Assembly (NCBI GenBank): GCA_964485855.1
Contig: CAZAKI010000006.1
Coordinates: forward strand, 3,995-67,994
DNA from: an uncultured Syntrophomonadaceae bacterium
Lineage (GTDB): Bacteria; Bacillota; Dethiobacteria; DTU022
Length of the DNA: 64,000 bases
Direction: 5' to 3'
A program made the translations under genes and the position numbers. Below, piece after piece: positions 1,527 to 39,330 of this stretch. The stretch's first letter is position 1. Each line of letters opens with the position of its first letter. Under the pieces are notes generated by a model. It did no database searches and was not told where the DNA came from. It worked only from the letters and a program-made list of their open reading frames with translations.

Positions 1527-1535
1527 TGATATAAT
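1527..1535 (+). promoter_or_regulatory. Candidate extended -10 promoter (TGaTATAAT) for the corrinoid/methyltransferase operon
   Basis: TGATATAAT in an AT-rich intergenic region about 210 nt upstream of the corrinoid gene; no good -35. Confidence 0.4.
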
Positions 1536-1746: not shown

Positions 1747-2394
1747 TTGAAAGAACTATTGCAAAATCTTGCTGCATCAATCCTCAGTGGGAACCGAAAT
1801 TCAGCTTTAGAATGGGCTGAACGGGGGCTGCAATCCGGTGTCAATCCCCTGGATCTAATTAGTAACGGCTTAACTGTCGGCTTAAATGAAGTCGGTGATA
1901 AGTTTGAATGCGGTGAATATTATCTACCGGATATGATGTTGGCTGCCGAAGCAATGAATGCGGTTTTGGAGATGCTTGCTCCGCACCTGGAAAAAGAGCG
2001 AACCGCTTCTGAACAGGTGGTTAAAGTGGTGATCGGCACGGTAAAAGGTGATCTGCATTCAATCGGCAAAGACATTGTGATCATGATGCTGAAAGCAGCG
2101 GGCATGGAAATCATCGATTTGGGGGTTGATGTCTCCGCTGCTGACTTTGTAAACTCGGTAGTGGAAAAAGAGGCAGCAGTGCTCGGCATATCTGCCCTGA
2201 TGACAACGACTATTCAGGAACAGAAAAAGATTATCGATCTTCTGTCTGAAAAAAACATACGTAACAAGGTAAAGGTAATTGTTGGCGGAGCGCCGCTTTC
2301 CGAGGAGTGGGCCATTAAGATTGGGGCCGATGCTTATGCGGCGGATGCCATAGCGGGAGTAAAAAAAATAAAAGCGCTGTTAAACCTGGCCTAA
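1747..2394 (+). CDS. Methyltransferase cognate corrinoid protein (MttC/MtbC family)
   Basis: B12-binding DLHSIG motif, N-terminal cap 'GDKFECGEYYLPDMMLAAEAM', SALMTTT, VGGAP. Likely start is TTG 1747 after GGAGG (ORF track start 1732). Confidence 0.93.
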   Translation: MKELLQNLAASILSGNRNSALEWAERGLQSGVNPLDLISNGLTVGLNEVGDKFECGEYYLPDMMLAAEAMNAVLEMLAPHLEKERTASEQVVKVVIGTVKGDLHSIGKDIVIMMLKAAGMEIIDLGVDVSAADFVNSVVEKEAAVLGISALMTTTIQEQKKIIDLLSEKNIRNKVKVIVGGAPLSEEWAIKIGADAYAADAIAGVKKIKALLNLA

Positions 2395-2411
2395 GGAAGG
2401 GGTAGAAACTG

Positions 2412-3845
2412 TTGCGCTTTGAACCTTTGTCAGCAAAAGACCTGCAGCTAATCCATGATATGACCCTGAAAGTCTTAAAGGAAACCGGAACATTGGTTGA
2501 GGGTGAAGAGGCCAGAAATATCCTGCTTTCAGCCGGTTGCCAAGAAAAAAGCAAGCGGATTCTTTTCCCACCACAGCTGGTTGAGGATTGTCTTGCTTGT
2601 CGAGTCCCGGTGATTCTTTACGGGGTCGATGAAACCATTGTGATGCCGCTTACTGAAGCAACCCGATCCTATACCCATAATTTTGGCTCAGTTTCTGTTT
2701 TACTGGATCCTCAGGATAACCGGATCCGTGAAGCATTGCTCCAGGATCTAATCGATTTTATTAAGATTAGCGATTCCCTGACCTATCCGGACATGGTTGT
2801 GCCGAGTTTAAGGCCAACCGACCTGCCGGAAGAGATTGCCTCTTTGGCCATGACGGCATATGCTCTGCAGTATACCAGGAAACCGGTTGATATCGGCACA
2901 GCCTCTGACCGGTGGGAGATCGGCTATCTAATTCGGATTGCTGCAGCAGTCAGAGGGGGAATCCAGAATTTAGTGGAGAAGCCGATGGGAACCCTGTCCA
3001 TATCACCACTCAGTCCACTAAACTTCCCGGCTGATATATCGGAGGCTATAGTTGAAGGCGCTCGCTCCGGTTTGCCGGTAACCATGCTACCCTGCCCGAC
3101 CCGCGGTTTAACTGCCCCGATTACCCTAGCCGGAGGCCTGGTGCTGCAGAATGCTGAGCAACTGGCCTTTCTGACCCTGGCTCGCCTGGTCAACCGCACC
3201 ACCCCGCTGGTTTATACCTGTCGCCTGGCCGGTGCCAATATGCGCACCGGTTGTGTGAGCGGCCGGGATCCCGATATCGGTTTTTCCGGGGCCTGCGCCG
3301 CCCAACTGGCTCGTTCTTACGGGCTACCGTCGGGAGTATATGGCCTCGATACCGGCTCAGCCCAACCGGATCTGCAGTCGGGTTACGAACGGGCTATTAA
3401 TGGTCTTTTCCCGGTGTTAGCGGGCGCTACTTTTGTTTCCGGTATGGGTGCCCTGAATGCCGGTTTACTGGCTAGTGCCGAACAGTTGATAATTGACGAT
3501 GAGATCTACGCCATGATCAAACACCGTCAAAATGGGCTTGAGGTAAGCGCCGAGGCTATCGGGGCCGAGGTAATAGACGCAGTTATGTCCGGTGGGCATT
3601 TCCTGGCCCAGGAACACACCCGGGATTACATGCGCCGGGGTGAAATCTATGCCGGACAGCTTGGTAATGAAGCACCTTTCGAGGAATGGCGGGCATCCGG
3701 ATCAATAACGGTCCGGGAGCAGGCTGGTGAGAAGATCAAGCAGCTGCTTGCCGGGCATCCAGGTGTGCTGGTCGAAGAATCAGTATGCCTTGAAATAGAA
3801 GCAATTCTAGAAGAAGCCAGATCTGAAAAAGAGATTCAGGCCTAA
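2412..3845 (+). CDS. Trimethylamine-methyltransferase (MttB) superfamily protein, non-pyrrolysine
   Basis: 477 aa; SPL, AP.TLAG.LV..NAE, PD.QSGYE and EQLIIDDEI motifs; no in-frame TAG. Confidence 0.9.
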   Translation: MRFEPLSAKDLQLIHDMTLKVLKETGTLVEGEEARNILLSAGCQEKSKRILFPPQLVEDCLACRVPVILYGVDETIVMPLTEATRSYTHNFGSVSVLLDPQDNRIREALLQDLIDFIKISDSLTYPDMVVPSLRPTDLPEEIASLAMTAYALQYTRKPVDIGTASDRWEIGYLIRIAAAVRGGIQNLVEKPMGTLSISPLSPLNFPADISEAIVEGARSGLPVTMLPCPTRGLTAPITLAGGLVLQNAEQLAFLTLARLVNRTTPLVYTCRLAGANMRTGCVSGRDPDIGFSGACAAQLARSYGLPSGVYGLDTGSAQPDLQSGYERAINGLFPVLAGATFVSGMGALNAGLLASAEQLIIDDEIYAMIKHRQNGLEVSAEAIGAEVIDAVMSGGHFLAQEHTRDYMRRGEIYAGQLGNEAPFEEWRASGSITVREQAGEKIKQLLAGHPGVLVEESVCLEIEAILEEARSEKEIQA

Positions 3846-3922
3846 ACCGGGGAGGCGATAGCGCGAATAAGGGTTTGTCGAAAGGCAGTACAATTATACT
3901 TTGAGGAGGTCTTTAAAGCATA

Positions 3923-5551
3923 ATGAAACAATTCAAGTGGCTTCCATTGTTGTTAGTTGTTCTGTTGTTCTGCAGTGTAGCTCTTACCGGCTGTGCGGGA
4001 GGGACCCAGGAATCCCAACATGTTTTTAGAAGCGGATACATGCGTGAAATTGAAAGCCTGAACCCGATGGTTATCTGGTCAGTGCAGGCATATGAAGTGA
4101 TGTATCTGACCTACAACTTCCTGATTAGCTGGGATGAAGATTTGAATGTCATTCCCGAACTGGCCAGGGAGTGGGAAGTCGATGAGGATGGCACACTCTG
4201 GACTTTCTACCTGCAGGAAGGGGTTAAATGGCATGATGGGGAACCTTTTACTGCGGATGATGTTAAATTCACATATGAATATATACGCGATAATGAGCTC
4301 GGTTACTTCTATGATTATGTCGCGGCCATGGAAGAAATCGAGGTGCTTGATGACTACACCCTGACCGTTAAAACGGATGAGCCGATCGCCTGGATGCCCC
4401 AGGTCCTGGTACCGATTTTACCGGCTCATATCTGGTCGGAGATTGATCCCGAAGAGGCTGAGGGTGATTTTGCCAACGATAACCCGGTTGGCACCGGACC
4501 GTTTAAAGTGGTCGAACACCGCAAGGGCGAATATACGAGGATGGTTGCCAACGATGATTATTTCAAGGGTCGCCCGGCCCTTGATGAAGTGATCTTTATG
4601 ATCTATGCCAATACCGACGTAATGGTTGAAGCACTAAAGCAGGGGGAACTTGAAATTATTTCCGATGTACCCGGCGCCCAGTTTAAAGCGCTAGAGGATG
4701 CAGCTGATCCTAATATCCTGGCTCTTAATGCTGATTCTCCCTCTTTTACTGAGTTGGCTTTCAATGTCTGGGATGATCCTGGTTCGCTTGGGAATCCTCA
4801 CCTGCTTGATAAAAATGTGCGGGTGGCAATTGAGTATGCTCTCGATCGCCAGGAGCTGATCGATGTAGCCCTGATGGGTTACGGTGAAGTGGCATCAACC
4901 CTGGTACCGCCGCTATTTGAATACTGGCACCTGGATCTGGGTCCTGATTTCCGTAGCTATGATCCTGATCAGGCGGAGGCTATACTTGAGGAGGCCGGTT
5001 ACAGTCGCGGAGGTCATGGGCTTCGAGTTGGTCCTGACGGTGAGCTGATGTCTTATACCCTGTTGATCCGCTCTGAATCGCCTGATAACCAGAAGATGGC
5101 TACCATGATCAAGGATATGCTGTCAGCAGTCGGCATCGGGATAGAGGTTAGCGTGATCGATGAGGGAACCCTGACTGACCGCATTTATGAAGGCGACTTC
5201 GATATGTTTATCTGGGGTTGGTATGTCGATATTGATCCGACATCAATCCTGAAGGTTGCCACAACTGATGAAATCATGTCCTGGAGTGACTGCTTCTATT
5301 CGAACCCTGAATATGATGCCCTGCACCAGTTACAGCAGCGGACGATGGATCGGGAGGAGCGGCGGGACTTGATTTACGAGATGCAGCGGATTTTTTATGA
5401 TGATGCCGCCTACATCATGTTGTCATATGACCCCGAACTGCAGGCTTATCGCACCGATCGCTATACCGGCTGGGTACGTAACCCGCGGACTGGCCCGGTT
5501 ATGTATACCAACGTGATTGACAGCTATGAACAGCTGAAACCCATCGAATAA
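3923..5551 (+). CDS. ABC transporter substrate-binding lipoprotein, family 5 (OppA/DppA-like)
   Basis: Lipobox LTGC; WTFYLQEGVKWHDGEPFTADDVKFT signature; PVGTGPFK. Confidence 0.95.
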   Translation: MKQFKWLPLLLVVLLFCSVALTGCAGGTQESQHVFRSGYMREIESLNPMVIWSVQAYEVMYLTYNFLISWDEDLNVIPELAREWEVDEDGTLWTFYLQEGVKWHDGEPFTADDVKFTYEYIRDNELGYFYDYVAAMEEIEVLDDYTLTVKTDEPIAWMPQVLVPILPAHIWSEIDPEEAEGDFANDNPVGTGPFKVVEHRKGEYTRMVANDDYFKGRPALDEVIFMIYANTDVMVEALKQGELEIISDVPGAQFKALEDAADPNILALNADSPSFTELAFNVWDDPGSLGNPHLLDKNVRVAIEYALDRQELIDVALMGYGEVASTLVPPLFEYWHLDLGPDFRSYDPDQAEAILEEAGYSRGGHGLRVGPDGELMSYTLLIRSESPDNQKMATMIKDMLSAVGIGIEVSVIDEGTLTDRIYEGDFDMFIWGWYVDIDPTSILKVATTDEIMSWSDCFYSNPEYDALHQLQQRTMDREERRDLIYEMQRIFYDDAAYIMLSYDPELQAYRTDRYTGWVRNPRTGPVMYTNVIDSYEQLKPIE

Positions 5552-5586
5552 AGTGGGTTACTAGTTTTAAGTTTTAATGTCAGGAG

Positions 5587-5613
5587 GGGCCGGAGTACCT
5601 TTCCGGCCCTTTT
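5587..5613 (+). terminator. Stem-loop with T-tract between SBP and permease genes (partial terminator or mRNA stabiliser)
   Basis: GGGCCGGA-7nt-TCCGGCCC followed by TTTT. Confidence 0.7.
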
Positions 5614-5644
5614 CAAGGTGCGCCCGGCATGGGAGGAATGTCTG

Positions 5645-6616
5645 ATGAATATGCGCAATTACTTGGTTACAAAATTTATTCAGGCCTTAATCACCGTTTT
5701 TATCGTCATCGGGATGAACTTTTTCCTGTTCCGGATTATGCCAGGCGATCCGATCAGGGTTTTAATCCGCAATCCGAAAATCTCGGCCGACTCCCTGGCC
5801 CGGGTGCGCGAGCAATTCGGTTTGAACGAAGGCCGCCTCGTCCAGTTTTGGATCTATCTGCGTGATCTTTTTACCGGTGATTTTGGCTCTTCTTTTAATT
5901 ATCGGCAGCCGGTGCTCGATATAATCATGGAGCGTGTGCCGGCGACGGTACTGCTGGTTGGCACGGCGACTGTGCTTTCAATTATCATCGGGGTCCTGCT
6001 TGGGGTGATCCTCGCCTGGAAAAGAGGTACCCGCCTTGACGTCATCGGGCTCAGTGTTTCGTTAATTCTTTACTCGATGCCTACTTTTTGGGTGGCGATC
6101 ATCATGGTGATGATTTTTGCGGTCTACTGGCAGATATTTCCTCTAGGCGGGATGGGGCTGCCCGGAGTCTTTTATACTTCCTATTGGGCTGAACTGGCCT
6201 CCAAGGGACGGTATCTTTTTTTGCCGACGATCACCTTTGCCCTCATCCTGGTAGGGGAGTACGTGCTGATCATGCGCAGTTCTCTACTTGAAGTGATGCG
6301 CGAGGATTACATGCTTACAGCGCGGGCCAAGGGGGTCAGTAACCGTAACCTGTTACGACGGCATGCCCTGCCCAACGCTATGTTGCCTGTGGTGACATTG
6401 ATTGCCATCAACTTGGGTTTTATCGTTGGCGGTGCTATTCAGATTGAGACTGTTTTTTCCTGGCCCGGTCTGGGCCGGCTCATGTACACGGCACTGACCA
6501 ATCGTGATTATCCTGTTCTGCAGGGACTTTTCCTCTTTGTCACCATCGCTGTGGTTGGCGCCAACTTCTGCGCCGATATTCTCTACCGCTATCTCGATCC
6601 GCGGGTTAAATCATAA
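5645..6616 (+). CDS. Peptide/nickel ABC transporter permease (OppB/DppB-like)
   Basis: MPGDP, GDFGSSF, EDYMLTARAKG (EAA loop), ETVFSWPGLG, RDYPVLQG. Start ATG 5645 follows GGAGG. Confidence 0.95.
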   Translation: MNMRNYLVTKFIQALITVFIVIGMNFFLFRIMPGDPIRVLIRNPKISADSLARVREQFGLNEGRLVQFWIYLRDLFTGDFGSSFNYRQPVLDIIMERVPATVLLVGTATVLSIIIGVLLGVILAWKRGTRLDVIGLSVSLILYSMPTFWVAIIMVMIFAVYWQIFPLGGMGLPGVFYTSYWAELASKGRYLFLPTITFALILVGEYVLIMRSSLLEVMREDYMLTARAKGVSNRNLLRRHALPNAMLPVVTLIAINLGFIVGGAIQIETVFSWPGLGRLMYTALTNRDYPVLQGLFLFVTIAVVGANFCADILYRYLDPRVKS

Positions 6617-6622
6617 GGGGGC

Positions 6623-7525
6623 ATGCCAATGATCACCAGCGAACAGAAAAAAGATCTTTTCGCCCTCTGGAAAAAGAACCTTGTATCCTTCTGGGGGATC
6701 TACAGCCAGAATAAAATGGGTTTAATTGGACTTGTAATTTTAATAATCTTTACTTTGATGGCGCTTTTTGGTCCGCTGCTGGTGGAAATTACGACCATGG
6801 CTGTAGACGACGTAACCCAGGTGCTTCATCCGCCAACCGGCAATTTCTGGCTTGGCACCGACGATCTCGGCAAGGATATCTTCGCTGGTGTGATCATCGG
6901 CTCCAGAGTTTCCCTGCTGGTCGGGGTTGCTGCCACTGCGATTTCAATGATTATCGGCACCGTGATCGGTATTGTTTCCGGTTTCTACGGCAAGACGATC
7001 GATGCCCTGCTGATGCGGATCACTGATGTCTTCCTGGTTATCCCCTGGCTGCCTCTGATGCTGGTTATGGCTGCTCTGCTCGGCCCCAGCCTGGCTAATA
7101 TTATTTTTGTGATCGGCATTACCAGCTGGGCGGGCACAGCCAGGATTATTCGCTCACAAACTTTAAGTATCAAGGAAAGGCCTTACGTGGAAAGAGCCCG
7201 GGCGATTGGCAGTGGCGACACGCATATCATGTTCTATCACATTTTACCCAACGTATTTCCGCTGATCTTTGCCAATACCGTGCTGGTAGCGGCGATCGCG
7301 ATTCTCTCGGAGACGACACTGAGTTTTCTCGGGATGGGCGATCCGACGCGGGTTACCTGGGGGATGATGTTGCATTTCGCCTTTTCGATGGGGGCTGTAT
7401 CCTTCGGTGCCTGGTGGTGGCTGCTACCGCCTGGTATCTGCGTAGTACTGGTTGTTTTAAGTTTTACCTTCATCGGCTATGCCCTGGACGAAGTGCTCAA
7501 TCCGAAGCTGAGGAGGCGCGATTAG
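6623..7525 (+). CDS. Peptide/nickel ABC transporter permease (OppC/DppC-like)
   Basis: WLGTDDLGKD, RVSLLVG, YVERARAIG, HILPN, LSFLGMG, TWGMML. Confidence 0.95.
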   Translation: MPMITSEQKKDLFALWKKNLVSFWGIYSQNKMGLIGLVILIIFTLMALFGPLLVEITTMAVDDVTQVLHPPTGNFWLGTDDLGKDIFAGVIIGSRVSLLVGVAATAISMIIGTVIGIVSGFYGKTIDALLMRITDVFLVIPWLPLMLVMAALLGPSLANIIFVIGITSWAGTARIIRSQTLSIKERPYVERARAIGSGDTHIMFYHILPNVFPLIFANTVLVAAIAILSETTLSFLGMGDPTRVTWGMMLHFAFSMGAVSFGAWWWLLPPGICVVLVVLSFTFIGYALDEVLNPKLRRRD

Positions 7526-7527
7526 CG

Positions 7528-8493
7528 ATGCTGCTGGAAGTAGAAAACATGACCACTTATTACAAGCTCAAGGATGGTTTCGTACGCGCCTGTGAAAATA
7601 TCAGCTTATCTCTTGAGCAGGGCGAAGCGTTGGGTTTGGTCGGTGAATCAGCCTCGGGAAAAACTACGGCCGCCCTTTCACTGATAAAACTTTTACCCGA
7701 AAATGCAAAAGTGATGTCCGGTAAAATCAGTATTGCGGGGCGTGATATTTCCCAGGCAATGGAGGCTGAGCTTCGCCGCATTCGCTGGAAAGAGATTGCG
7801 ATCATCTTCCAGGGAGCGATGAACGCTTTGAATCCAGTGCGACGGGTCGGTGACCAGATTGTCGAGGTCCTGCGTATTCACGAGAAGATGACTGACAAAG
7901 CGGCTTTGCTCCGGACAATTGATCTATTTGAACAGGTAGAGATTGATCCATCACGGGTTAGGGATTATCCCCATGAATTCAGTGGAGGAATGCGCCAGCG
8001 CGTAATGATCGCCATGGCTATCGCCTGTAATCCGAAAGTAGTGATTGGTGATGAACCGACTACTGCGCTCGATGTGATGGTTCAAGCCCAGGTTTTACAG
8101 CTCCTTGAAAAGCTGCGCAGCAAACGCCGGATGGGGATGATTCTAATCACCCACGATCTTTCTGTCGTTGGTGAAACTTGCGACCGGGTGGCGGTTATGT
8201 ATGCTGGACAGATTGTCGAAAGCGGCCCCACTGAAAGAGTTTTTGAAAATCCGGCTCACCCCTATACCCGAGCTCTAATTGCCGCCTTTCCCAATATTGA
8301 GGGTGAGCGTTACCTGGCCCAGTCGATTCCAGGGAATCCCCCCAATCTGCTTAATCCCCCATCGGGTTGCCGTTTTCATGAACGATGCTCGGAATCCATG
8401 AAACTTTGCAGTTGTCAGGAACCCTTACCGGTCAAACTTGATTCAGGCCATTTTGCTTCCTGTCACCTCCTGGGAAGGAGGGTGTTATCGTGA
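7528..8493 (+). CDS. Oligopeptide ABC ATP-binding protein (OppD-like)
   Basis: Walker [35 protein letters not shown]-terminal GCRFHERC. Start ATG 7528 after GGAGG (ORF track's 7414 overlaps oppC). Confidence 0.95.
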
Positions 8494-9500
8494 GCAACCG
8501 GGATCAAGTTATCTCTAAGAACGAGCTGCTTAGGGTTGAGGGATTGGAGGTTCACTTTGCTGCCCGTACCGGTTTTCTTGCTGCCCTGCTCAGCAGGGAA
8601 AAAGCATTGGTCAGGGCGGTTGACGGAGTTGATTTTTCACTGGGTAAAGGCGAAATACTTTGCCTGGCCGGTGAATCAGGCAGCGGCAAAACTACTACTG
8701 GTAAAGCTGTCCTGCGCCTGATCGAACCGACAGGAGGGAAAATATGGTTTAAGGGCGAAGATTTGCTCAGTTTGACCAGGCAGAAGCTGCGTCTTTTCCG
8801 CCAGGATGCACAGATCATATTTCAAGATCCTTATGAGTCGCTAAATCCGCGGCAGACTGTTTTTGCCACTGTTGCCGAGCCGCTGGAAGTAAACCGGATT
8901 TGCAACAGTAACGCCGAGAAAGAAGAAAGGGTTATCGAGGCTCTCTGCGATGCGGGCTTGAACAACCCACGGGAGCTTTTCTTGCGTTACCCTCATGAAT
9001 TAAGTGGCGGGCAGCGCCAACGCCTGGCCATTGCCGGTGCTCTGGTCCTCAAGCCTGATTTTATTATGGCTGATGAACCGGTATCGATGCTGGATTTGTC
9101 AATCCGGGCAGGCATCCTGAAACTGATGGTTGATTTGCGTGATCTGAAAGGGATTAGCTATCTCTTTATCACCCACGATTTATCCCTGGCTTGGCTGGTT
9201 TCAGACCGGATAGCCGTTATGTATTTGGGAAAAATTGTGGAGCTCGGTTCCGCGGATGCAGTGATCCGTCAACCGCTTCATCCCTATACCCGGGCTCTTG
9301 TTTCAGTAATCCCGGTGCCGAAAAGTATTTCACGAAGGGATAAGAAGTTGCTCAAGGGAGAAACTCCGGATCCGGTAAATATCCCTGTCGGGTGTCGCTT
9401 CCATCCCCGGTGTCCGCAGGTAAAGCCGCGATGCCGTGAAGAAGAACCCTGCTTCAGGGAAATATTGCCCGGCCATTTTGGTGCCTGCCATTACCTTTAA
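8490..9500 (+). CDS. Oligopeptide ABC ATP-binding protein (OppF-like)
   Basis: GESGSGKTT, YPHELSGGQRQR, DEPVSMLD, GCRFHPRC. Confidence 0.95.
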   Translation: MSNRDQVISKNELLRVEGLEVHFAARTGFLAALLSREKALVRAVDGVDFSLGKGEILCLAGESGSGKTTTGKAVLRLIEPTGGKIWFKGEDLLSLTRQKLRLFRQDAQIIFQDPYESLNPRQTVFATVAEPLEVNRICNSNAEKEERVIEALCDAGLNNPRELFLRYPHELSGGQRQRLAIAGALVLKPDFIMADEPVSMLDLSIRAGILKLMVDLRDLKGISYLFITHDLSLAWLVSDRIAVMYLGKIVELGSADAVIRQPLHPYTRALVSVIPVPKSISRRDKKLLKGETPDPVNIPVGCRFHPRCPQVKPRCREEEPCFREILPGHFGACHYL

Positions 9501-9512
9501 GAAAGAGCATAA

Positions 9513-12500
9513 GTGCTGATGAACGAACTGTATTTACTTTCTGTTGATAACTGGCTGCAGAGCCTCGAGCTGGCGGCAGCTGTTTTAGCTGATCGGAAGA
9601 GGGACGCTTTCTTTTTGGATCCGGAAAGCGAAGAAGAGGAGCGAGAAGCGCTTCTCCTGCTGGCCAGCCGTTTGCCGCTTCGGGTTTTCAATTTAACCGA
9701 AAGTGTAAAAGTCGACCGGATTGCGGCTGCCGCAGAGGTGAAAATAGAGGCAGATCCTCTTTCCGGTCACCACACTATTGATGGTTGCGCGGCCTATTTT
9801 GGGAGACCGGCAGGGATCTGCTCTGCAGCTGCTAATGCACCGGCTGATTGCCTGAAGGCAGCAATGCTGGCGGTTCGCCTCGGTTACTATTTTGTAGCCT
9901 TGCCTGTTGAAAACCGGATCGAACTGCTTAACTACGAAGAAATACCCCTGGTTTGGTACGGGTTACTAGAGGCCTTAGCGCCAACAGGGATCAATCCTGA
10001 AAGGAAAAACTTAACTATTATTCAGGATGATTTCCGGCTGCTTCGATTTTTTGAATCTGCCGGCCTCTCCTCGGACTACCTGGTTGTCTATAATTCCGCG
10101 GATCTACTGTATAAAACCTTAAGAGGCGATGCTTTACGCGATCTTTGGGTTCGAGGTTTAAGTCTACATCTTTTATCGCTTGCTTCGTACCGCCCGGTCT
10201 TTCCCTTTGATGTCCAGAGTGAAAAGCCGGATCCGGTAATAATTGAGGACAATCTGCACCGGACAGTTCATCTGGTTGGCCTTAACCCTCGTTTTCAGGT
10301 AGTGCTGGCTTCTCCGGCGGTAGTGCCTTTTTTCTATGAAGAAAAAAAGGCGATTGGTGCTGTTACCGAGGAGATGGTCAGGGATATTCACCTGCGTCTG
10401 AATGCAGATGTTTTTTTTGATCTGGCAGAAGGGCGTTTGATGCAAAACAGCAGTGGAGGAATTTCAGCCCAACTAATCAGCACAAAAAGATATGATCAAA
10501 TCCAAAAGAATTTAAAGCGCGGGGGACGTGACGTTCTAATCGTTGCCACTCCACATGTTGAAACAGGGATTATATTTTCCACCGATGATGCGCTGATTGA
10601 TACACAGCTGGTGCCGCTGTTGGAAGACGCCGGTTTTGCTATCAACCAGCTCCGGGATCGTGACGCCGGTTACCGGCAAGTGGCTGCGGCGCTTAAAGAT
10701 GCCGACTACTTTCTCTACACCGGCCACGGAGGGCCGGAAGGATTGCATACTCACGGCAGGACGCTAAACAGAAGTGATTTACCACTGATGCCGCCCCTGG
10801 TGGCTTACGCTTCGGCTTGTTCCACGGTTGGCCTGGTTCCTCACTGGTTTTCACCTGACGAAGGGTTAACCTGGCAAGGAGTTAAGGTTGATTCGCGCCA
10901 GGTAATCGGGATTTCTTTTGTCGAAAAAGGGGCGATCTGTTTTATTGGCGGGGCCACAATCGAAGATTTACAGTACACAACTTCTACCTATAGCGTATTC
11001 ATGGAAGCTCTGTTGCTAAAGGGCTTAAGCGTAGGCGAAGCGGTCCGGGAGATGCGCCATGTGATCAGTCTTTATGCGGCAACCCTCCTGCAGAAAAATC
11101 CCGAGGCCTACCGCAAATATCGCTGGGGAACAGCCAATGCTATCCACCAGCAGGTTTTACTGGGTGACCCGGCTTTTGCTCCGGCTGTAAAGCAGTATTC
11201 TGATGCTGCCTTGCCTGTAATACTGGCCGGAGAAGCACCTTTGCAAACCCTTACCATTGAGATCCCCGAAGATCGTTGGCAGCGCGGGGCAGCTGCTGTC
11301 CACAAGCTGGAAGCTTCAAAGTACTATTACCGCTGTCGCAATGTTGAGGTTATTACTCCCTACGGTGAAGATATCTTCAGCTGGGGCGACTATTATCGAG
11401 TGGCACCTGATGCCCGTAATATTAGCGAGTGGGCCGTAAAGTCCACCTTTTTACACCTGACCCATCTTCTGCCGCCGGGAATGGTGCCGCAGAAGCTGAC
11501 TTTGATAGCTGTCGAGACCGGGAAGAGTGAATGTTTGCTCTGTGGGGAAGATGTTGACCAGTGCCAACCACCCCTTGAAGCGATGCAGAAATTTAAACTA
11601 CCTTACCTTCTGCAACCCCCTATCGAACTGAATATGAATGAAGGATGGGCTTTTTGCACAGAAGATCTGGGTGGCGCAGTTCGGATGCGCTGGCTGGTAC
11701 CGCTCTTATTAATCGACGATCAGAACCGCAGTGCCTTTCCCCTGAAAAAGTTTGTCTTTCAGATCGAATCTATCCCGGCTGTCAAGCTCAGCGGCAAGAT
11801 TACTAATGCAGAGCTTGCTTCTTCGTACTTGGTGTGTGCCGGGTATCAGGGTGAGAATAGAACTGAGCAAGATTTCCGGGGGCAGCCTTTTAACATGACT
11901 GCTGCTGTCCTCAGCGGTAGGGATGGCTCATTTTCCATCGACTGTGCTCCCGGTTCGGCGCTCACTGTTCGGGGGCAGTTCCCCTTATATCATCTGCTGG
12001 AGAACTATCAACCTTTTGCAACAACATTTTGCCGGCCTGCAGCGGAAAAACCTGTGACGATCGAGTTGAAGGCGTCGCAGCTGATTGACTTCAGGGGTTT
12101 TATCTATGATTCAATTAGTGGAGAGCCGCTGGCCGGTGTATTGATCAGGGTATTTCGTGGTGAACATGACCCGGTAGGGGATCTCCTCATTGAAGCATTT
12201 GCCGGGGAAGCGGTCACTGGCCAAAAAGGCGATTTTATGATCAAGCTGCCGGCAGGCGGCTACCTGGTTTATGCCGCGGCTGCATCCGAAAACAGGTATT
12301 ACAAGTCAGCCGAATGGGTCTTGAAACTGCGTGATGGAGAGAAAGGCAATCGGATTTATGCTCTTGATCAGGCCGGGATCGTTAAGGGCAGGGTCACCTT
12401 CGTCGGGTACCAACCTCCGGATCCGCCACTGGTTGCCCTAAAAAGGTATCCAAAAATAGAAGGTGCAGCTCCTCTGACCAAGGTTCCCGTTGATCGCAAC

Positions 12501-12665
12501 GGTAGTTACCAGTGTTTGGTCAGTTACCAGGATCGCTTCCAAATTGTTCTGGAAGAGGAAGGGTATAAATATATTTATGATGATAATGACGGAAAGGGAT
12601 ACAGGCTGGAACCGCAGCAGATTCTTGAACGCGATTACTGTCTGTTATCGGATGAAGATAGTTAA
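9513..12665 (+). CDS. Large clan-CD cysteine peptidase (C25 gingipain-like) with C-terminal carboxypeptidase-regulatory-like beta domains
   Basis: YTGHGG (His405) and YASACSTVG (Cys436) dyad; later 'GAICFIGG' and 'LLGDPA' motifs; C-terminal 'GFIYDSISGEPLAGVLIRV' repeat type; no signal peptide. Confidence 0.7.
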   Translation: MLMNELYLLSVDNWLQSLELAAAVLADRKRDAFFLDPESEEEEREALLLLASRLPLRVFNLTESVKVDRIAAAAEVKIEADPLSGHHTIDGCAAYFGRPAGICSAAANAPADCLKAAMLAVRLGYYFVALPVENRIELLNYEEIPLVWYGLLEALAPTGINPERKNLTIIQDDFRLLRFFESAGLSSDYLVVYNSADLLYKTLRGDALRDLWVRGLSLHLLSLASYRPVFPFDVQSEKPDPVIIEDNLHRTVHLVGLNPRFQVVLASPAVVPFFYEEKKAIGAVTEEMVRDIHLRLNADVFFDLAEGRLMQNSSGGISAQLISTKRYDQIQKNLKRGGRDVLIVATPHVETGIIFSTDDALIDTQLVPLLEDAGFAINQLRDRDAGYRQVAAALKDADYFLYTGHGGPEGLHTHGRTLNRSDLPLMPPLVAYASACSTVGLVPHWFSPDEGLTWQGVKVDSRQVIGISFVEKGAICFIGGATIEDLQYTTSTYSVFMEALLLKGLSVGEAVREMRHVISLYAATLLQKNPEAYRKYRWGTANAIHQQVLLGDPAFAPAVKQYSDAALPVILAGEAPLQTLTIEIPEDRWQRGAAAVHKLEASKYYYRCRNVEVITPYGEDIFSWGDYYRVAPDARNISEWAVKSTFLHLTHLLPPGMVPQKLTLIAVETGKSECLLCGEDVDQCQPPLEAMQKFKLPYLLQPPIELNMNEGWAFCTEDLGGAVRMRWLVPLLLIDDQNRSAFPLKKFVFQIESIPAVKLSGKITNAELASSYLVCAGYQGENRTEQDFRGQPFNMTAAVLSGRDGSFSIDCAPGSALTVRGQFPLYHLLENYQPFATTFCRPAAEKPVTIELKASQLIDFRGFIYDSISGEPLAGVLIRVFRGEHDPVGDLLIEAFAGEAVTGQKGDFMIKLPAGGYLVYAAAASENRYYKSAEWVLKLRDGEKGNRIYALDQAGIVKGRVTFVGYQPPDPPLVALKRYPKIEGAAPLTKVPVDRNGSYQCLVSYQDRFQIVLEEEGYKYIYDDNDGKGYRLEPQQILERDYCLLSDEDS

Positions 12666-12685
12666 GAGCTGACAGGGGTAATAAT

Positions 12686-13720
12686 ATGCACGAGATTCTG
12701 ATGATCAAAGCAAAGGGCAGCAACTATGATATCGGCTATAAAGTTGGCAGGGCTGCAAGCAGCTTGATCGAAAGATCGATTAGAAGTTACCGGCAGATCC
12801 TTCCCCGGGAAGAAGGATGGAGCGGAAAGTGGGTGGTTCCGGAAGGATGTCTGGAGGCGGCTCGAGAGAAGTTTCCACACCTGCTTGAAGAACTGCAGGG
12901 AATGGCGGAGGGCTCCGGCCAAAGTTTTAGTGATCTATTTTTTCTTAACTCCTTGGAAGAAGTACTCGATCTAAAATCCCCGACAGCCTGCACCTCTCTT
13001 GGTTTGGAAGCTAACGGTGAAGTTTGGCTAGGGCACAATGAGGATTGGTATGCTGAAGATGCCGATACAGTGATCGCTATTTATGGTCAGCCAAATAATC
13101 TACCGTCTTTCATCAGTATAACTGCTGCTCCTTTTCTTGCTGCAGTGGGCATGAATGAGGCCGGTCTGGCCCAGGGAGTAAACTCGGTTACTGCAACTGA
13201 CTATCAAGTGGGAGTGCCACGGATGCTTGCTGCGCGAGCAGTTCTGGAAGCTACGACGATCAGAGAGGCAATTGATAAGGCTACCCCACACAACAGGGCG
13301 GGTGGTTACAATCACCTGCTGGTGAGTACCAAGAAAGAACTTGGCAACTTAGAAACTACAGCTACCGAGTCTGATTATTTGCCGGGTGCAAAGCTAATTT
13401 ACCATACCAATCATTATCTTAGTCCGCGCTTGCAGCGCCTGGCAAAAATGGGATCAAATCATTCTCTGACTCGTTACAGGAGATTGACCGAGCTGGAACG
13501 AATAGATCAGAGAGTTACCAATCGGGTAACCTGCAGGGAAAGGCTGATTAGTTATTTAAGCGATCATGGAAACAGGCCATTATCAATCTGCAAGCACGCT
13601 TGTGAACAAATGGGTAACGAGGGGACTATTTTTTCTGCTATTTTTGAGCCTGGTTCTTTTAATGCATGGATTGCTGTCGGTAATCCCTGTGATAACAAAT
13701 ACAAAGAATTAAAAATATAA
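12686..13720 (+). CDS. Peptidase C45 family autoproteolytic Ntn hydrolase/acyltransferase
   Basis: A|CTS cleavage site (Cys102), GHNEDW, GMNEAGLAQGVNS, HTNHYL. Confidence 0.9.
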   Translation: MHEILMIKAKGSNYDIGYKVGRAASSLIERSIRSYRQILPREEGWSGKWVVPEGCLEAAREKFPHLLEELQGMAEGSGQSFSDLFFLNSLEEVLDLKSPTACTSLGLEANGEVWLGHNEDWYAEDADTVIAIYGQPNNLPSFISITAAPFLAAVGMNEAGLAQGVNSVTATDYQVGVPRMLAARAVLEATTIREAIDKATPHNRAGGYNHLLVSTKKELGNLETTATESDYLPGAKLIYHTNHYLSPRLQRLAKMGSNHSLTRYRRLTELERIDQRVTNRVTCRERLISYLSDHGNRPLSICKHACEQMGNEGTIFSAIFEPGSFNAWIAVGNPCDNKYKELKI

Positions 13721-13738
13721 AGAGTTGGTGATGAAATC

Positions 13739-14902
13739 ATGACAGATTACAGTGTTGTTCACCAAAAAGTCGAAGCGGAAAAAGATAAGCTGGTGGAAAT
13801 TGCCCGCGCAATCCATGGCAGGCCGGAACTTGGAGGTCAGGAATTTTTTGCTGTAGAGCAGATTACTGCTTATCTCGAGGGACAGGGTTTTAAAATCTGG
13901 CGAGGAGTGGGCGGCTTGAAAACAGCATTCATGGCCAGCTATGGTGAAACCGGTTACCATGTCGGATTCTGTTCCGAGTATGATGCTTTACCTGAGATCG
14001 GCCATGGCTGCGGTCATAACCTGATCGGTCTAGCCGGGGTAACTGCCGGGGTGGCGCTGGCTGCTGCCTTACATGATCAGCCCGGTCGGGTCTCGATTAT
14101 TGGTACTCCTGACGAAGAAGATCATGGCGGTAAAGTCGATCTGGTCAGAGCTGGTGTATTCGATGATATCGATGCGGCAATGATGTTTCACCCCGGTTGT
14201 TCGACCAGTTTTCTGATCGAATCGCTGGCCTGCCGGGATTACCGTTTTATTTTTCACGGCCGTAGCGCCCATGCTTCCAGCGAGCCCTGGGAAGGACAGA
14301 ACGCCCTTGATGCCGTAATTCAGACTTTTAATAGCATTAATGCCTTGCGCCAGCATTTGAAAGACGACGTCCGCATTCACGGCATTGTCTCCGAAGGCGG
14401 CCTGGCAGCCAATGTTGTACCGGATCGGGCAGCGGCAGACTTTATCATCAGATCGCGCGACAGTCTTTATCTTGGTGAAGTAATTGAGAAAGTGGTTGCC
14501 TGTGCCCGCGGGGCGGCAATTGCGACCGGTACCAATCTTGAAGTTACTGAATCCGGTTATCCTTATGATGCGATGATCAGTAACCATACACTGGCTGATC
14601 TTTTTGCTGAGAGTTTAGGGCAAACCGGCTATGCCATTGAATCACCGCACGAGGAAGGGCGGGGCTCAATTGATATGGGTAATGTCAGTAGAGTCACCCC
14701 ATCAATTCACCCGATTGTAGCAATTACTAACCAGTGGGTTACAGGTCATACCCGGGAGTTTACTGCACTCTGTGATTCCGATCAAGCTTATGAAGTGATG
14801 CTCCAGGTAGGAGAAGCCATGGCACTGACCGGTCTTAAAGTGATCAAGGATCAGACCCTGCAGCTTAAGATCAGAACTGAATTTGAACAGCAATCAGTCT
14901 AG
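13739..14902 (+). CDS. M20 family amidohydrolase (M20D/ACY1L2-like)
   Basis: PELGGQE, EYDALPEIGHGCGHN, GTPDEE, HGRSAHAS, GSIDMGNVS, HP. Confidence 0.92.
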   Translation: MTDYSVVHQKVEAEKDKLVEIARAIHGRPELGGQEFFAVEQITAYLEGQGFKIWRGVGGLKTAFMASYGETGYHVGFCSEYDALPEIGHGCGHNLIGLAGVTAGVALAAALHDQPGRVSIIGTPDEEDHGGKVDLVRAGVFDDIDAAMMFHPGCSTSFLIESLACRDYRFIFHGRSAHASSEPWEGQNALDAVIQTFNSINALRQHLKDDVRIHGIVSEGGLAANVVPDRAAADFIIRSRDSLYLGEVIEKVVACARGAAIATGTNLEVTESGYPYDAMISNHTLADLFAESLGQTGYAIESPHEEGRGSIDMGNVSRVTPSIHPIVAITNQWVTGHTREFTALCDSDQAYEVMLQVGEAMALTGLKVIKDQTLQLKIRTEFEQQSV

Positions 14903-14919
14903 ACACCAGCTAATCAGCT

Positions 14920-14946
14920 ACACTGTGTATCAAGTTATCAAGTTAT
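14920..14946. repeat. 27-bp element, copy 1 (exact inverted copy at 18781-18807)
   Basis: ACACTGTGTATCAAGTTATCAAGTTAT; contains tandem TATCAAGT units. Confidence 0.9.
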
Positions 14947-14969
14947 AGGTAATTGGAGGAGGTGAGCAG

Positions 14970-15953
14970 ATGCCGGAAACTGTTGTAGAAAAAATTCGTG
15001 ATGATTTATTTCGAGCCGAGATCCCCCTGCCCCGCAACCCCCTGAAGGCAACCAATTCCTATATTATTAAAAGTAATAAGCGCAACCTGGTGATTGACAC
15101 TGGGATGAACAGGGATGAATGTAAAAATGCCCTGATCGATGCATTTCGTCAGCTTGAGATTGATCTTGAACGAACTGATTTTTTTATCACCCACCTTCAT
15201 GCCGATCATGTCGGCCTGGTGGATGTATTTGCTGCCAGGGATGCGGTAATCTATTTTAATGAACCCGATGCTGCAATTCTTAACCGGTCTGATCTCTGGC
15301 AACTGGTTCAATCACTGGCCGGAAAACACGGGTTTCCGGAAAGCCTGGTTAACGCGGCAATTGATTCTCACCCTGGCCAGCGCTACAGCCCGAAAAGTTC
15401 GGTTGAGTTCACGCTAGTCAAAGATGGTGACAGCCTGTTATATGGAGATTATGAGCTGCAATTGGTTGCTACGCCCGGCCATACAAGCGGTCATACCTGT
15501 TTGTATGAACCTTGCCAGAAAATACTTTTTTCCGGTGACCATATCCTTGGTGATATCACCCCCAATATTTCTACCTGGCTTGAAGCCGGTAATCCCTTGC
15601 AGGAATATTTTATCAGCCTTGACCGAATTTATGAAATGGACATAAGCTTGGTGCTTCCGGGCCACCGCAGCATTATTCACAACTGTAGGCAAAGAATAGA
15701 TCAGTTGAAGGAACATCATTGTAAAAGGCTGGAAGAAGTATTGCAGATACTTGGACGGATCGGCGAAGGTTCTGCTTTTGAAGTGGCATCCAGGATGACC
15801 TGGGATATTATTGCTGCAAGCTGGGATGATTTTCCTCTAATGCAAAAATGGTTTGCCACCGGAGAGGCTCTGGCTCATATTCACTATTTGGAACAGCAGA
15901 ACAAGCTAAAACGGAACAAGGCTGGCGAAACACTGCTATTTTCTCTCGCTTAA
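14970..15953 (+). CDS. MBL-fold metallo-hydrolase with C-terminal winged-helix-like extension
   Basis: THLHADH, PGHTSGH, FSGDHIL, LPGH motifs. Confidence 0.92.
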   Translation: MPETVVEKIRDDLFRAEIPLPRNPLKATNSYIIKSNKRNLVIDTGMNRDECKNALIDAFRQLEIDLERTDFFITHLHADHVGLVDVFAARDAVIYFNEPDAAILNRSDLWQLVQSLAGKHGFPESLVNAAIDSHPGQRYSPKSSVEFTLVKDGDSLLYGDYELQLVATPGHTSGHTCLYEPCQKILFSGDHILGDITPNISTWLEAGNPLQEYFISLDRIYEMDISLVLPGHRSIIHNCRQRIDQLKEHHCKRLEEVLQILGRIGEGSAFEVASRMTWDIIAASWDDFPLMQKWFATGEALAHIHYLEQQNKLKRNKAGETLLFSLA

Positions 15954-15990
15954 TATAAAGCATAGCGATTTGTTATCCAAAGAGGAGGTT

Positions 15991-17493
15991 ATGAAAATCG
16001 GCCGCTATATACTTTCAATTGACCAAGGCACAACCGGTACCACCGCTATTCTTTGGAATCAGGATGGTATCGCTGTAGCCCGAATCAACCGGGAACATAA
16101 ACAATTTTACCCTCAGCCAGGTTGGGTAGAGCACGATGCCGAAGAAATTTGGAGAAATGTTCTGCTCTCGGCTTCAGAAGTACTGGTTCAGGCCGGAACC
16201 GGGGCCGGTGATGTTGCGGCAATCGGGATAACCAACCAGCGGGAGACAGTTGTTTTCTGGGACCGGAATACTGGTTTTCCTTTGACTCGAGCCATTGTTT
16301 GGCAATGCCGACGCACTGCTGATTTATGTCGTCAACTAAAGGGTGATGGTTTTGAAGAGCAGGTGCGGCAGAAAACAGGCTTGCTGCTTGATCCTTATTT
16401 TTCCGGGTCGAAAATTCGTTGGGCCCTGGAAAATGTTAGCGCAGTAAGCAAGGCGGCAGCTGACGGCACACTCTGCTGTGGGACGATTGATAGCTATTTG
16501 CTTTTTCGCCTGACCGGAGGACAAGTTTTTGCTACCGATTACAGCAATGCTTCCCGGACCCTGCTTTTTAATATTCATAATCTTAAGTGGGATCAGGATT
16601 TGCTAAATCTTTTTAGTGTTCCACAGGCAGCCTTACCCCGGGTGATGGCTAACAGCACAATCTATGGCAATACAGTTCCGGAACTCTTTTCCGGCATAAA
16701 AATTCCGATTGGCGGCATTGCCGGTGATCAACAGGCAGCGCTCTTCGGACAGGCCTGTTACGAGCCTGGGATGACTAAAAACACTTACGGTACTGGTTGC
16801 TTTCTGCTAATGAATACCGGTGAAAATGTGGTTATCTCGAAACATGGTTTGCTGACCACTATCGCCTGGGGCCTTGGTGATAAAGTTGAATATGCGCTCG
16901 AAGGCAGCATTTTTATTACCGGTGCCGCTGTCCAATGGTTGCGCGATGGCTTAGGTCTGATCAGCCAGGCAGCTGAGCTGGAAGGATTGGCTGCTCAAGT
17001 TGAAGATAGCGGTGGCGTTTACCTGGTACCGGCTTTTGCCGGGCTTGGCGCCCCGCATTGGGATCCCTATGCCCGTGGTTTAATCATCGGGATTACTGGT
17101 GGTACAACCAGGGCCCATATCGGCAGGTCAGTTATTGAGGCCATGGCCTATCAGACCCGTGATGTTCTTGAGATCATGCACCGTGATGCTAAACTACCGG
17201 TTAAAGAGCTACGAGTTGACGGTGGAGCCAGTGTTATGGATCTGCTGCTACAATTCCAGGCGGATATAACCTCGACACCGGTACGCCGTTCGGCAACCTT
17301 TGATACGACGGCCCTCGGAGCTGCTTACCTGGCCGGTCTGGCTTGTGGGCTTTGGAAAGACAAAGAGGAATTAAGTGAAAAATGGCGGGGTAGTGCCTAT
17401 TTCGAACCGCAAATGAGCCAGGAAAAACGGCAGGAACTTTATGCAGGCTGGAGCTCTGCAGTCAAACGTTCCTTAGGCTGGGCTGAAAAATGA
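15991..17493 (+). CDS. glpK: Glycerol kinase
   Basis: IDQGTTGT, GITNQRET, DPYFSGSK, GDQQAALFGQ, KNTYGTGCF, VDGGAS. Start ATG 15991 after GGAGG. Confidence 0.95.
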   Translation: MKIGRYILSIDQGTTGTTAILWNQDGIAVARINREHKQFYPQPGWVEHDAEEIWRNVLLSASEVLVQAGTGAGDVAAIGITNQRETVVFWDRNTGFPLTRAIVWQCRRTADLCRQLKGDGFEEQVRQKTGLLLDPYFSGSKIRWALENVSAVSKAAADGTLCCGTIDSYLLFRLTGGQVFATDYSNASRTLLFNIHNLKWDQDLLNLFSVPQAALPRVMANSTIYGNTVPELFSGIKIPIGGIAGDQQAALFGQACYEPGMTKNTYGTGCFLLMNTGENVVISKHGLLTTIAWGLGDKVEYALEGSIFITGAAVQWLRDGLGLISQAAELEGLAAQVEDSGGVYLVPAFAGLGAPHWDPYARGLIIGITGGTTRAHIGRSVIEAMAYQTRDVLEIMHRDAKLPVKELRVDGGASVMDLLLQFQADITSTPVRRSATFDTTALGAAYLAGLACGLWKDKEELSEKWRGSAYFEPQMSQEKRQELYAGWSSAVKRSLGWAEK

Positions 17494-18830: not shown

Positions 18831-18905
18831 TGGCTGGGGCGGTAGGATTCGAACCTACGCATGCGGGATCCAAAGTCCCGTGCCTTACCGCTTGGCCACA
18901 CCCCA
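18831..18905 (-). tRNA. tRNA-Gln (TTG)
   Basis: Minus strand TGGGGTG...GGGAC-TTTGGAT-CCCG...GGTTCGAATCC...CCA; cloverleaf with encoded CCA. Confidence 0.97.
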
Positions 18906-39320: not shown

Positions 39321-39330
39321 AAACGTTATT

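Follow-up and report, generated by a model that had tools for sequence, protein, structure and literature searches.

The 64,000-nt stretch of contig CAZAKI010000006.1 analysed here (GenBank assembly GCA_964485855.1, an uncultured Syntrophomonadaceae bacterium), which we call the window, contains a cluster of twelve genes in which a corrinoid-dependent methyltransferase pair is joined to a peptide-type ATP-binding cassette (ABC) importer, four hydrolases and a glycerol kinase. The genes occupy positions 1747–17493, all on the + strand, and the gaps between neighbours range from −4 to 77 nt. The listing of open reading frames (ORFs) and profile scans thus agree with a first-pass annotation of the same DNA, which had described twelve co-oriented, closely spaced genes. 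An extended −10 promoter element, TGATATAAT, lies at 1527..1535 (+ strand), ~210 nt 5' of the first gene, and its pattern (TG[A/G]TATAAT) is the only invariant element across seven aligned upstream regions from loci with the same architecture (type A, described below). The ~210-nt leader has no Rfam match at gathering or E-value thresholds and, promoter aside, its sequence is not conserved, so a riboswitch or other regulatory RNA at this position was rejected. The first gene begins with a TTG at 1747, located 7 nt 3' of a GGAGGA ribosome-binding site. Only one intergenic gap contains a terminator-like hairpin, on the 3' side of the gene for the substrate-binding protein (SBP); this is a common position for such hairpins, which raise SBP expression relative to the downstream genes. 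At the other end of the cluster, the glycerol kinase gene follows its neighbour after 16 nt without a terminator and is probably co-transcribed with the cluster, and the next gene (DUF502, 17499–18134) is convergent to it.

The first gene (1747..2394) encodes a corrinoid (B12-binding) protein of the methyl-carrier type (PF02310, 95.2 bits; PF02607, 71.3 bits). It scores 214 bits against TIGR02370, 209 bits against MtbC and 196 bits against MtgC, and its DxHxxG B12-binding motif reads DLHSIG. Located 17 nt further 3', and therefore directly adjacent to its likely cognate corrinoid gene, is the gene for a 477-aa MttB-superfamily methyltransferase (2412..3845), i.e., an MT1 (substrate:corrinoid) enzyme of the non-pyrrolysine (non-Pyl) kind, belonging to what we call the 'Asp clade'. 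PF06253 matches residues 3–449 with 222.7 bits, and the enzyme is about equally far from the solved relatives Pyl-MttB (7xcl, 179 bits) and MtgB (9yce/2qne, 170 bits, residues 5–469); the full-length profile match and the matches to solved members place it in the superfamily. It is not a Pyl-MttB: no in-frame stop interrupts the ORF, Asp313 stands where Pyl-MttB has Pyl334, Ser343 stands where it has Tyr364, and the TIGR02369 score (330.9 bits) is below the cut-off of 525.

The next five genes have the architecture of a PepT-family (Opp/Dpp) importer. They encode a family 5 substrate-binding lipoprotein (SBP_bac_5, 3923..5551; PF00496, 324.7 bits; lipobox LTGC), an OppB-like permease (5618..6616; BPD_transp_1 and BPD_transp_1_N), an OppC-like permease (6623..7525; BPD_transp_1 and OppC_N), an OppD-like ATPase (7528..8493) and an OppF-like ATPase (8490..9500), both ATPases with ABC_tran and oligo_HPY domains. 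The OppD start at 7528 was placed using the translation and the lengths of orthologues (320–325 aa). The best solved relative of the SBP is the Bacillus subtilis oligopeptide-binding protein AppA (1xoc, 160 bits), with NikA relatives at ~121 bits, and a peptide-like ligand is, by analogy, the best reading for the importer. No BCCT or OpuA-type transporter was found among the profile-scan matches of the window.

After OppF comes the gene for a 1050-aa gingipain-fold cysteine peptidase-like protein, which we call C25L (9513..12665). Its residues 298–555 match PF01364 with 28.6 bits (above the gathering score of 23 bits), and N-terminal alpha/beta domains precede this gingipain-fold region while several pilin-like Ig/CnaB domains follow it. 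The dyad motifs GHG (His-Gly) and AC (Ala-Cys) are invariant in 43 homologues, making H405/C436 the catalytic dyad in the numbering of the 1050-aa ORF (H403/C434 in P0104). When an AF2 model of C25L (pLDDT 89.3, pTM 0.92) was searched with Foldseek, gingipain R (RgpB, 1cvr/4ief) was returned with probability 1.0 and a target TM of 0.52–0.55, so the fold, the invariant dyad and the profile match all agree with family C25 of clan CD. The secreted or surface location of that family is not shared, since no C25L orthologue has a signal peptide, the ORF cannot extend upstream and no secretion or sorting domain was found. An invariant Asp (D356, P0104) precedes the catalytic His by 47 residues, and the Cys follows that His by 31; we take this to resemble the Asp163-His211-Cys244 arrangement of RgpB, as a likeness of sequence spacing and not of residue-level alignment. 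Reading the S1 pocket of C25L through a sequence alignment to gingipain was abandoned, as none could be obtained at E≤1 or E≤10. An exhaustive profile search of 1.84 billion proteins found only about a dozen full-length representatives at 50% identity; C25L thus makes up a rare cytoplasmic gingipain-fold family seen so far only in this operon.

Of the remaining hydrolases, C45 (12686..13720) is an Ntn amide hydrolase/acyltransferase (NF040521, 211.6 bits vs a cut-off of 85; PF03417, 112.6 bits) whose best solved relative is 2x1d (80 bits, residues 5–336). Its nucleophile, Cys102, is invariant in 13 orthologues and presumably corresponds to Cys103 of isopenicillin-N acyltransferase; profile and nucleophile together identify it as an autoproteolytic Ntn enzyme. 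The M20D amidohydrolase/dipeptidase (13739..14902; TIGR01891, 178.5 bits vs a cut-off of 153.75) falls in the HmrA/PM20D2 subgroup by its score and full-length homology, matching HmrA (3ram) with 263 bits and human PM20D2 (7yh4/8xzc, deposited as 'Xaa-Arg dipeptidase') with 215 bits, and its metal-ligand-type Cys/His/Glu residues are invariant. Work cited by PMC5714238 identified PM20D2 as a beta-alanyl-lysine dipeptidase. The MBL-fold metallohydrolase (14970..15953; PF00753, 78.4 bits) has an HLHADH (HxHxDH) site plus further invariant His/Asp residues, and its nearest solved structure, 2zo4, is itself uncharacterised. Catalytic residues are invariant in all four hydrolases, which on this basis look active. 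The last gene (15970..17493) encodes the glycerol kinase GlpK (NF000756, 738 bits; TIGR01311, 706 bits), with an equivalog-level score (705.8 bits vs a cut-off of 590).

The MttB homology search delimits a clade of ~56 protein clusters with at least 54% identity to the window's enzyme, followed by a gap to sequences of at most 38%. Neighbourhoods of clade members were gathered by exact-protein look-up, by scanning species-representative genomes with a C25L alignment and by scanning metagenome contigs with a clade-MttB alignment. The window's proteins were then mapped onto the loci by tblastn, and loci with MttBs >97% identical were collapsed, giving 29 non-redundant loci; each linkage count below is restricted to loci whose contig leaves room for the gene concerned. 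The corrinoid gene is directly 5' of MttB in 25 of 26 loci, the SBP5 gene is directly 3' in 19 of 20 (and adjacent on the 5' side in the other), the full Opp set is present in 19 of 19, and C25L comes after OppF in 16 of 17. The permeases are 70–91% identical across loci. The reverse scan with C25L gave 19 genomic hits, all of them in metagenome-assembled genomes (MAGs) of uncultured Bacillota, and every hit with upstream context has the corrinoid–MttB–Opp arrangement. This linkage spans 54–100% MttB identity and differing genomic contexts, and is far beyond chance. Searches begun with either MttB or C25L lead to the same conserved module, made up of the methyltransferase pair together with the block of importer and hydrolase genes. 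The first-pass annotation, which had proposed this coupling, recognised that it would fall if the two parts were never syntenic elsewhere; over the 29 loci, synteny is near-universal.

The closest loci carry the labels 'uncultured Syntrophomonadaceae', 'Bacillota bacterium', 'Firmicutes bacterium UBA993' and 'Dethiobacteria bacterium', and on one JGI contig (L045) the MttB is 100% identical to that of the window and the other covered cluster proteins are 99–100% identical. By their record names, the sample sources include anaerobic digesters, a deep anoxic lake and soda-lake sediment. A single locus, L008, is the exception in corrinoid position, SBP5 side and C25L alike. Its order is Corr-SBP5-MttB-OppB-OppC-regulator-Corr-OppD-OppF, which puts the MttB gene inside the transporter operon, and an amidase takes the place of C25L. 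In L008 and L030 the SBP is only 27% identical, and the link between MttB and Opp is still kept. L008 holds the most divergent member of the clade; the genes inserted between its OppC and OppD (13353-15319) are a PocR-AraC regulator and the second corrinoid gene, and its vicinity includes an aldehyde:ferredoxin oxidoreductase, an M29-like peptidase and the amidase.

Two architectures can be distinguished. Type A, to which the window belongs, runs Corr-MttB-SBP-OppBCDF-C25L-C45-M20-MBL-GlpK, and its flanks are also conserved (LarE upstream; DUF502, DUF192, LiaF and a Mur ligase downstream). Type B has other flanks and retains M20, which is therefore found in both types, but is without C45, MBL and GlpK; an agmatinase-type ureohydrolase gene (TIGR01230, ~200 bits vs a cut-off of 174) stands beside its corrinoid and MttB genes. 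In type B loci the MttB, SBP or C25L gene is often duplicated, in some loci more than one of them, whereas the genes for the permeases, the ATPases and M20 remain single, so it may be the three duplicated components that recognise the distinguishing part of the substrate. The evolutionary core is the corrinoid protein, MttB, SBP5, OppBCDF, C25L and M20. C45, MBL and GlpK are confined to one lineage in which the flanks are conserved as well, so their position may partly reflect shared ancestry, and GlpK especially may be inherited context. The first-pass annotation had treated the whole battery of hydrolases as part of the coupled system and proposed checking whether MttB, Opp, C25L and C45 co-occur in other genomes. 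The coupling itself is strongly supported, as is co-occurrence for the first three, and C25L and M20 belong to the core; C45 is restricted to type A among the clade's loci and, like MBL and GlpK, has to be removed from the core.

Some candidate substrates were set aside. A glycerophospho-amine substrate, with MBL as a phosphodiesterase paired with GlpK, was dropped as the main model because the nearest structures are uncharacterised, both genes are missing in type B and the MthB-type phosphate-binding Arg is absent. Catabolism of cyanophycin (beta-Asp-Arg) fits Arg-type peptidases; it offers MttB no methyl group and was not adopted. In one type B locus (L019:15380-19690), the M20 gene is followed by GcvT, GcvPA and GcvPB, which may be coincidence or may hint at glycine as a pathway product.

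The active site of the window's MttB is unlike the MtgB type. In MtgB, Y97 and F356 hold the quaternary ammonium while R312 and H348 hold the carboxylate; R312 is essential in MtgB and is conserved in MtgB, MtcB, MtyB, MtpB and MthB, enzymes whose substrates are all acidic quaternary amines (PMC13080624, 2026). Choline fits this rule because it is used only once phosphorylated by the cluster-encoded kinase MthK (PMC12155760). The window's enzyme has F91 for Y97 (Phe is invariant in the clade; the pair is aligned by HMMER and shifted by one residue in MAFFT), G308 for R312 (Gly, Ala or Asp in the clade), G344 for H348 (invariant Gly) and G351 for F356 (invariant Gly). The arginine that marks acidic quaternary-amine methyltransferases is therefore missing, and of the cation-pi pair and H348 only an aromatic residue near Y97 is retained. 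With the equivalents of R312, H348 and F356 gone, free glycine betaine, or a small acidic quaternary amine bound in a similar way, is an unlikely substrate, and this prediction speaks against the outcome that the first-pass annotation had named as fatal to its own proposal, namely that the enzyme acts on free glycine betaine. The replacement of three bulky pocket residues by Gly, together with an acidic residue, suggests a ligand that is larger and cationic or neutral.

Comparison with Pyl-MttB adds to this picture. The active-site residues Gly110-Thr111, Met249, Pyl334 and Tyr364 of that enzyme (PMC9842639) map to G92-S93, Cys228, Asp313 and Ser343 in the window. Asp313, the residue aligned with pyrrolysine, is invariant across the clade bar one Glu, and D313 and C295 are specific to the window's clade. 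Six other polar residues (His89-Asn90, Glu169, Cys228, Arg271 and Tyr310) are invariant in both this clade and its sister clade and absent from Pyl-MttB and MtgB; judged from the alignment, they could form a metal or proton-relay site.

That sister clade is 35–38% identical and has Ser at the Pyl position (hence 'Ser clade'), and in a rough neighbour-joining tree the two form one superclade apart from the MtgB-like enzymes and Pyl-MttB. Its loci have their own arrangements: MttB-C45-DUF2817 divergent from a beta-lactamase-fold gene, SBP5-OppBCDF, S58 and S9 (L009 and L031); MttB-MttB-SBP5-OppBCDF-M20-M29-amidohydrolase, with a corrinoid gene, a third MttB and a saccharopine-dehydrogenase-family gene in the vicinity (L032); and three MttB genes followed by SBP5-OppBC-OppDF (L057). 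L056 is without the transporter link. Over the sampled superclade loci, the pairing of MttB with a PepT importer and peptidases is thus a recurrent theme. The peptidases around L009, L031, L032 and L057 cover S58/DmpA-like, S9, beta-lactamase-fold, C45, DUF2817, M20, M29 and M19 types, and these loci have up to three consecutive MttB paralogues, often without an adjacent corrinoid gene. Elsewhere (L029:1-3018, − strand), a distant MttB paralogue with 27% identity lies beside an AblA-type lysine 2,3-aminomutase (591 bits) and a GNAT acetyltransferase. AblA and a GNAT acetyltransferase are the gene pair for N-epsilon-acetyl-beta-lysine synthesis, which by analogy hints at a beta-lysine-related methylated solute for this paralogue. 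An arginine pathway at L029 was considered and rejected: of its two 'OTCase-family' genes, one encodes an ordinary ornithine carbamoyltransferase and the other resembles an aspartate carbamoyltransferase, which makes them weak evidence.

We favour the view, with somewhat better than even confidence, that the cluster works as one operon for the catabolism of a peptide-like compound bearing an N-methylated, cationic (non-acidic) group. The SBP5 lipoprotein and OppBCDF-type ABC system would import the compound, and cytoplasmic C25L would trim it together with the PM20D2/HmrA-type M20 dipeptidase. Lineage-specific helpers may contribute, i.e., C45 and MBL in the window's lineage and the agmatinase-type ureohydrolase and second C25L elsewhere. 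The MttB-clade enzyme would then move the N-methyl group to the neighbouring corrinoid protein in its Co(I) state. A corrinoid:tetrahydrofolate (THF) methyltransferase and a reductive activase, both encoded elsewhere, would together feed the methyl group into C1 metabolism and maintain the corrinoid in its active state. What the sequences show directly is the gene content, the operon-like layout, the conserved linkage, the intact catalytic motifs and an active site unlike that of MtgB; that the pathway is catabolic, in what order its steps run, where the methyl group goes and what the substrate is are our inferences. A route of this kind had been called undescribed in the first-pass annotation, and our literature searches likewise found no published description of it and no link between MttB, Opp and peptidases.

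By analogy with the enzyme families present, the most likely substrate class is peptides or dipeptides with a post-translationally methylated basic residue. The gingipain fold, a dipeptidase type that prefers a basic residue at the C-terminal position and the type B agmatinase-type gene together suggest a basic-residue theme, at the level of family analogy; known gingipains are Arg/Lys-specific, and AblA-type and saccharopine-dehydrogenase-family genes occur near related loci. Every known non-Pyl MttB uses a quaternary amine, so we rank Ne-trimethyllysine first, with methyl-arginine, methyl-histidine and non-ribosomal amide conjugates as alternatives.

Several points weigh against this proposal. 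The substrate class is drawn from family-level analogies, and every sequence comes from a MAG or metagenome. Profile scans of the window found no corrinoid:THF/CoM methyltransferase (MT2) and no RamA-type activase (the first-pass annotation had said as much of methyl-THF transferase and RamA), and the annotated related loci have no such gene either. Neither the window nor these loci therefore holds a complete set of MT1, corrinoid protein, MT2 and activase, and the fate of the methyl group is an assumption. The second-best NCBIfam name for the SBP is NikA, and besides peptides the known ligands of SBP5 proteins include nickel, opines and sugars. In PDB profile searches (E≤1 and E≤10), the C25L sequence matched no gingipain and no solved protein. 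Lastly, an agmatinase is out of place with a lysine-based substrate, and no candidate substrate accounts for GlpK.

The competing explanation that survives best, although we think it unlikely, is that the imported compound is not a ribosomal-type peptide but some other amide conjugate of a methylated amine, from which the hydrolases free the amine for MttB. Examples would be acyl- or aminoacyl-agmatine or polyamine, beta- or gamma-linked pseudodipeptides (anserine-like) and non-ribosomal cyanopeptide fragments. Such bonds would suit the C45 and M20D families, which typically cleave N-acyl or unusual amide bonds, and PM20D2 in particular takes beta-alanyl and gamma-aminobutyryl dipeptides (work cited by PMC5714238). 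The agmatinase-type gene embedded beside MttB and the corrinoid gene would find a place in this scheme, as would the S58, beta-lactamase-fold and DUF2817 enzymes of the sister clade, which are typical of D- and beta-peptide bonds, and the many non-peptide ligands of SBP5 proteins leave room for it. It is harder to reconcile with C25L, the largest and most specific core enzyme, which has an endopeptidase (gingipain) fold, and with an importer whose ATPases have the oligopeptide-type C-terminal domain and whose SBP has an oligopeptide binder, AppA, as its best relative.

A more doubtful idea, with only a small chance of being right, accepts an imported peptide but not an amine demethylase: MttB would act on an S- or O-methyl group of the peptide, or methylate an acceptor on it, using a metal or acid site. 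What makes it worth considering is the set of superclade-invariant residues His89-Asn90, Glu169, Cys228, Arg271 and Tyr310, absent from Pyl-MttB and MtgB, with Cys228 at the Met249 gate position and Asp313 (in the window's clade only) at the Pyl334 position. Zinc sites of such composition activate substrates in other corrinoid methyltransferases, e.g., MtaB. However, we know of no MttB-family member that uses a metal, any clustering of these residues in space is a conjecture from sequence, and all characterised members are N-methyl transferases.

We consider it very unlikely that the two halves have no shared substrate, i.e., that a general peptide-uptake/peptidase operon merely sits beside an ordinary pair for demethylating a small quaternary amine such as glycine betaine. 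Each half does resemble a self-sufficient known system, and part of the type A synteny is shared ancestry, given that the flanks are conserved too, but the synteny across contexts and over 54–100% MttB identity largely refutes this idea. Moreover, the L008 MttB gene is interleaved with Opp genes, C25L is known nowhere else, the glycine-betaine/acidic-amine residues are absent and there is no BCCT/OpuA-type transporter. Hardly credible is the notion that the ABC system imports a metal or metallophore (nickel/cobalt, NikA/CntA-like) for the corrinoid protein, next to unrelated hydrolases. In its favour, the SBP reaches 196 bits with the model for NikA and 157 bits with that for CntA, its PDB matches include NikA structures, and the gene for LarE (nickel-pincer cofactor) lies upstream. 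Those scores, however, are far under the curated cut-offs (393 and 800), the best PDB matches are peptide binders and both ATPases have oligo_HPY. LarE is cut off by a divergent ORF and the promoter and does not occur in type B loci, and metal import would not explain why C25L and M20 co-occur so strictly with the importer.

The single-operon reading can be set against characterised systems. One that is close in layout is MtgB/MtgC(/MtgA) of Desulfitobacterium hafniense and Methanolobus vulcani, which likewise has a non-Pyl MT1 beside a DxHxxG corrinoid protein and a dedicated importer, and whose MtgB is ~30% identical to the window's MttB over its full length. The window differs in having an Opp-type ABC system instead of OpuD/BCCT, in Gly at three of the four betaine-binding residues, in lacking an MT2 gene in the cluster and in having peptidases in the operon. 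Eubacterium limosum, with its shared MtqC, MtqA and RamQ, provides a precedent for substrate-specific MttB homologues (MtpB, MtcB and MtyB) whose MT2 and activase are encoded apart from the MttB genes. Unlike the window's enzyme, MtpB, MtcB, MtyB and MthB retain an arginine at the R312 position and have acidic quaternary amines as substrates, and the neighbouring transporters in E. limosum are MFS-type, with no link to peptidases or an ABC peptide importer. These cases, with the characterised mtgB adjoining opuD, confirm the background on non-Pyl MttB loci that the first-pass annotation had relied on. In the phosphocholine system MthBCAK, the cluster-encoded MthK prepares the true substrate, and the same logic would apply to cluster-encoded hydrolases.

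Individual components also have known counterparts. Pyl-MttB from M. barkeri (7xcl) gives the slightly best PDB score and shares Gly at the H348 and F356 positions and an F-G-[T/S] loop, but the window's MttB is without UAG/Pyl and has Asp for Pyl334, Ser for Tyr364 and Cys for Met249. The Opp/App/Dpp importers of Firmicutes have the same five components, including an SBP5 lipoprotein and oligo_HPY ATPases, with AppA the closest; the window's importer, in contrast, is co-inherited with a corrinoid methyltransferase pair, and its SBP has been swapped in L008 and L030. C25L shares with RgpB (C25, clan CD) the catalytic-domain fold followed by an Ig-like domain and the His-Gly/Ala-Cys dyad; unlike RgpB it is cytoplasmic, with extra N-terminal alpha/beta and several C-terminal CnaB/pilin-like domains. 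M20 is homologous over its full length to PM20D2 and Staphylococcus aureus HmrA (215–263 bits), here in a methyltransferase-importer operon.

Housekeeping and fermentation functions account for the other 46 kb of the window. Upstream of the cluster, and outside the operon, is the LarE-type ATP-dependent sacrificial sulfur transferase gene found 5' of type A clusters (222-1031; TIGR00268, 294 bits), with an SSF-family symporter further 5' in L001 and L003. Between it and the cluster, a 103-aa ORF divergent from the cluster (1049-1360, − strand) encodes a lipoprotein-like N-terminus (…AFLGCS) and a very acidic, Glu/Pro-rich middle, and L001 and L003 have a similar-sized ORF without a Pfam match at this position. 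Downstream, two tRNA genes (18834-18905 and 18955-19028, − strand; Rfam, 66 bits each) lie between the DUF192 and LiaF-like genes, both preceded by a strong promoter-like site. A thiolase, an 809-aa fused 3-hydroxyacyl-CoA dehydrogenase/enoyl-CoA hydratase and a YsiA-type TetR regulator (23859-28112, − strand) make up a module of the beta-oxidation or butyrate type, as would suit a relative that degrades fatty acids syntrophically. The co-oriented genes at 37536-50026 encode a sigma-54 activator (CBS, PAS), a class-III aminotransferase, an aldehyde:ferredoxin oxidoreductase, NuoE-like and NuoF-like proteins, a 1142-aa GltD-like/molybdopterin (formate-dehydrogenase-like) fusion and a glutamate dehydrogenase, which resembles a module for oxidising amines or omega-amino acids together with electron-confurcating partners. 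They are followed by a 988-aa protein that joins a response-regulator receiver to PPDK_N (PEP-utilising, ATP-binding), an unusual fusion (50231-53197).

To our knowledge, non-Pyl MttB homologues without an assigned substrate number in the thousands. The five non-Pyl cases solved so far all involve small acidic quaternary amines and betaine-type or MFS-type carriers; the clade described here, which has another active-site signature and is constantly linked to a peptide importer and dedicated peptidases, points to a substrate class outside this acidic-amine paradigm. If our favoured reading is correct, methylated compounds derived from peptides would join the substrates of anaerobic methylotrophy in digesters, anoxic lakes and soda-lake sediments, the rare C25L family would gain a function, and the clade would be a natural test of methyl-ammonium activation without pyrrolysine or the conserved Arg. 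One can also go further, in a speculative and rather unlikely extension: the superclade may be an unrecognised class of corrinoid methyltransferases that takes methyl groups from methyl-Lys, methyl-Arg, methyl-His or other N-methylated peptide-derived amines, possibly non-quaternary ones too, with acid or metal activation replacing pyrrolysine. Were that so, anaerobes could use methylated residues from the proteins of necromass as a methylotrophic substrate, and C25L would stand as the first gingipain-type peptidase of the cytoplasm with a specialisation in cleavage beside methylated residues.

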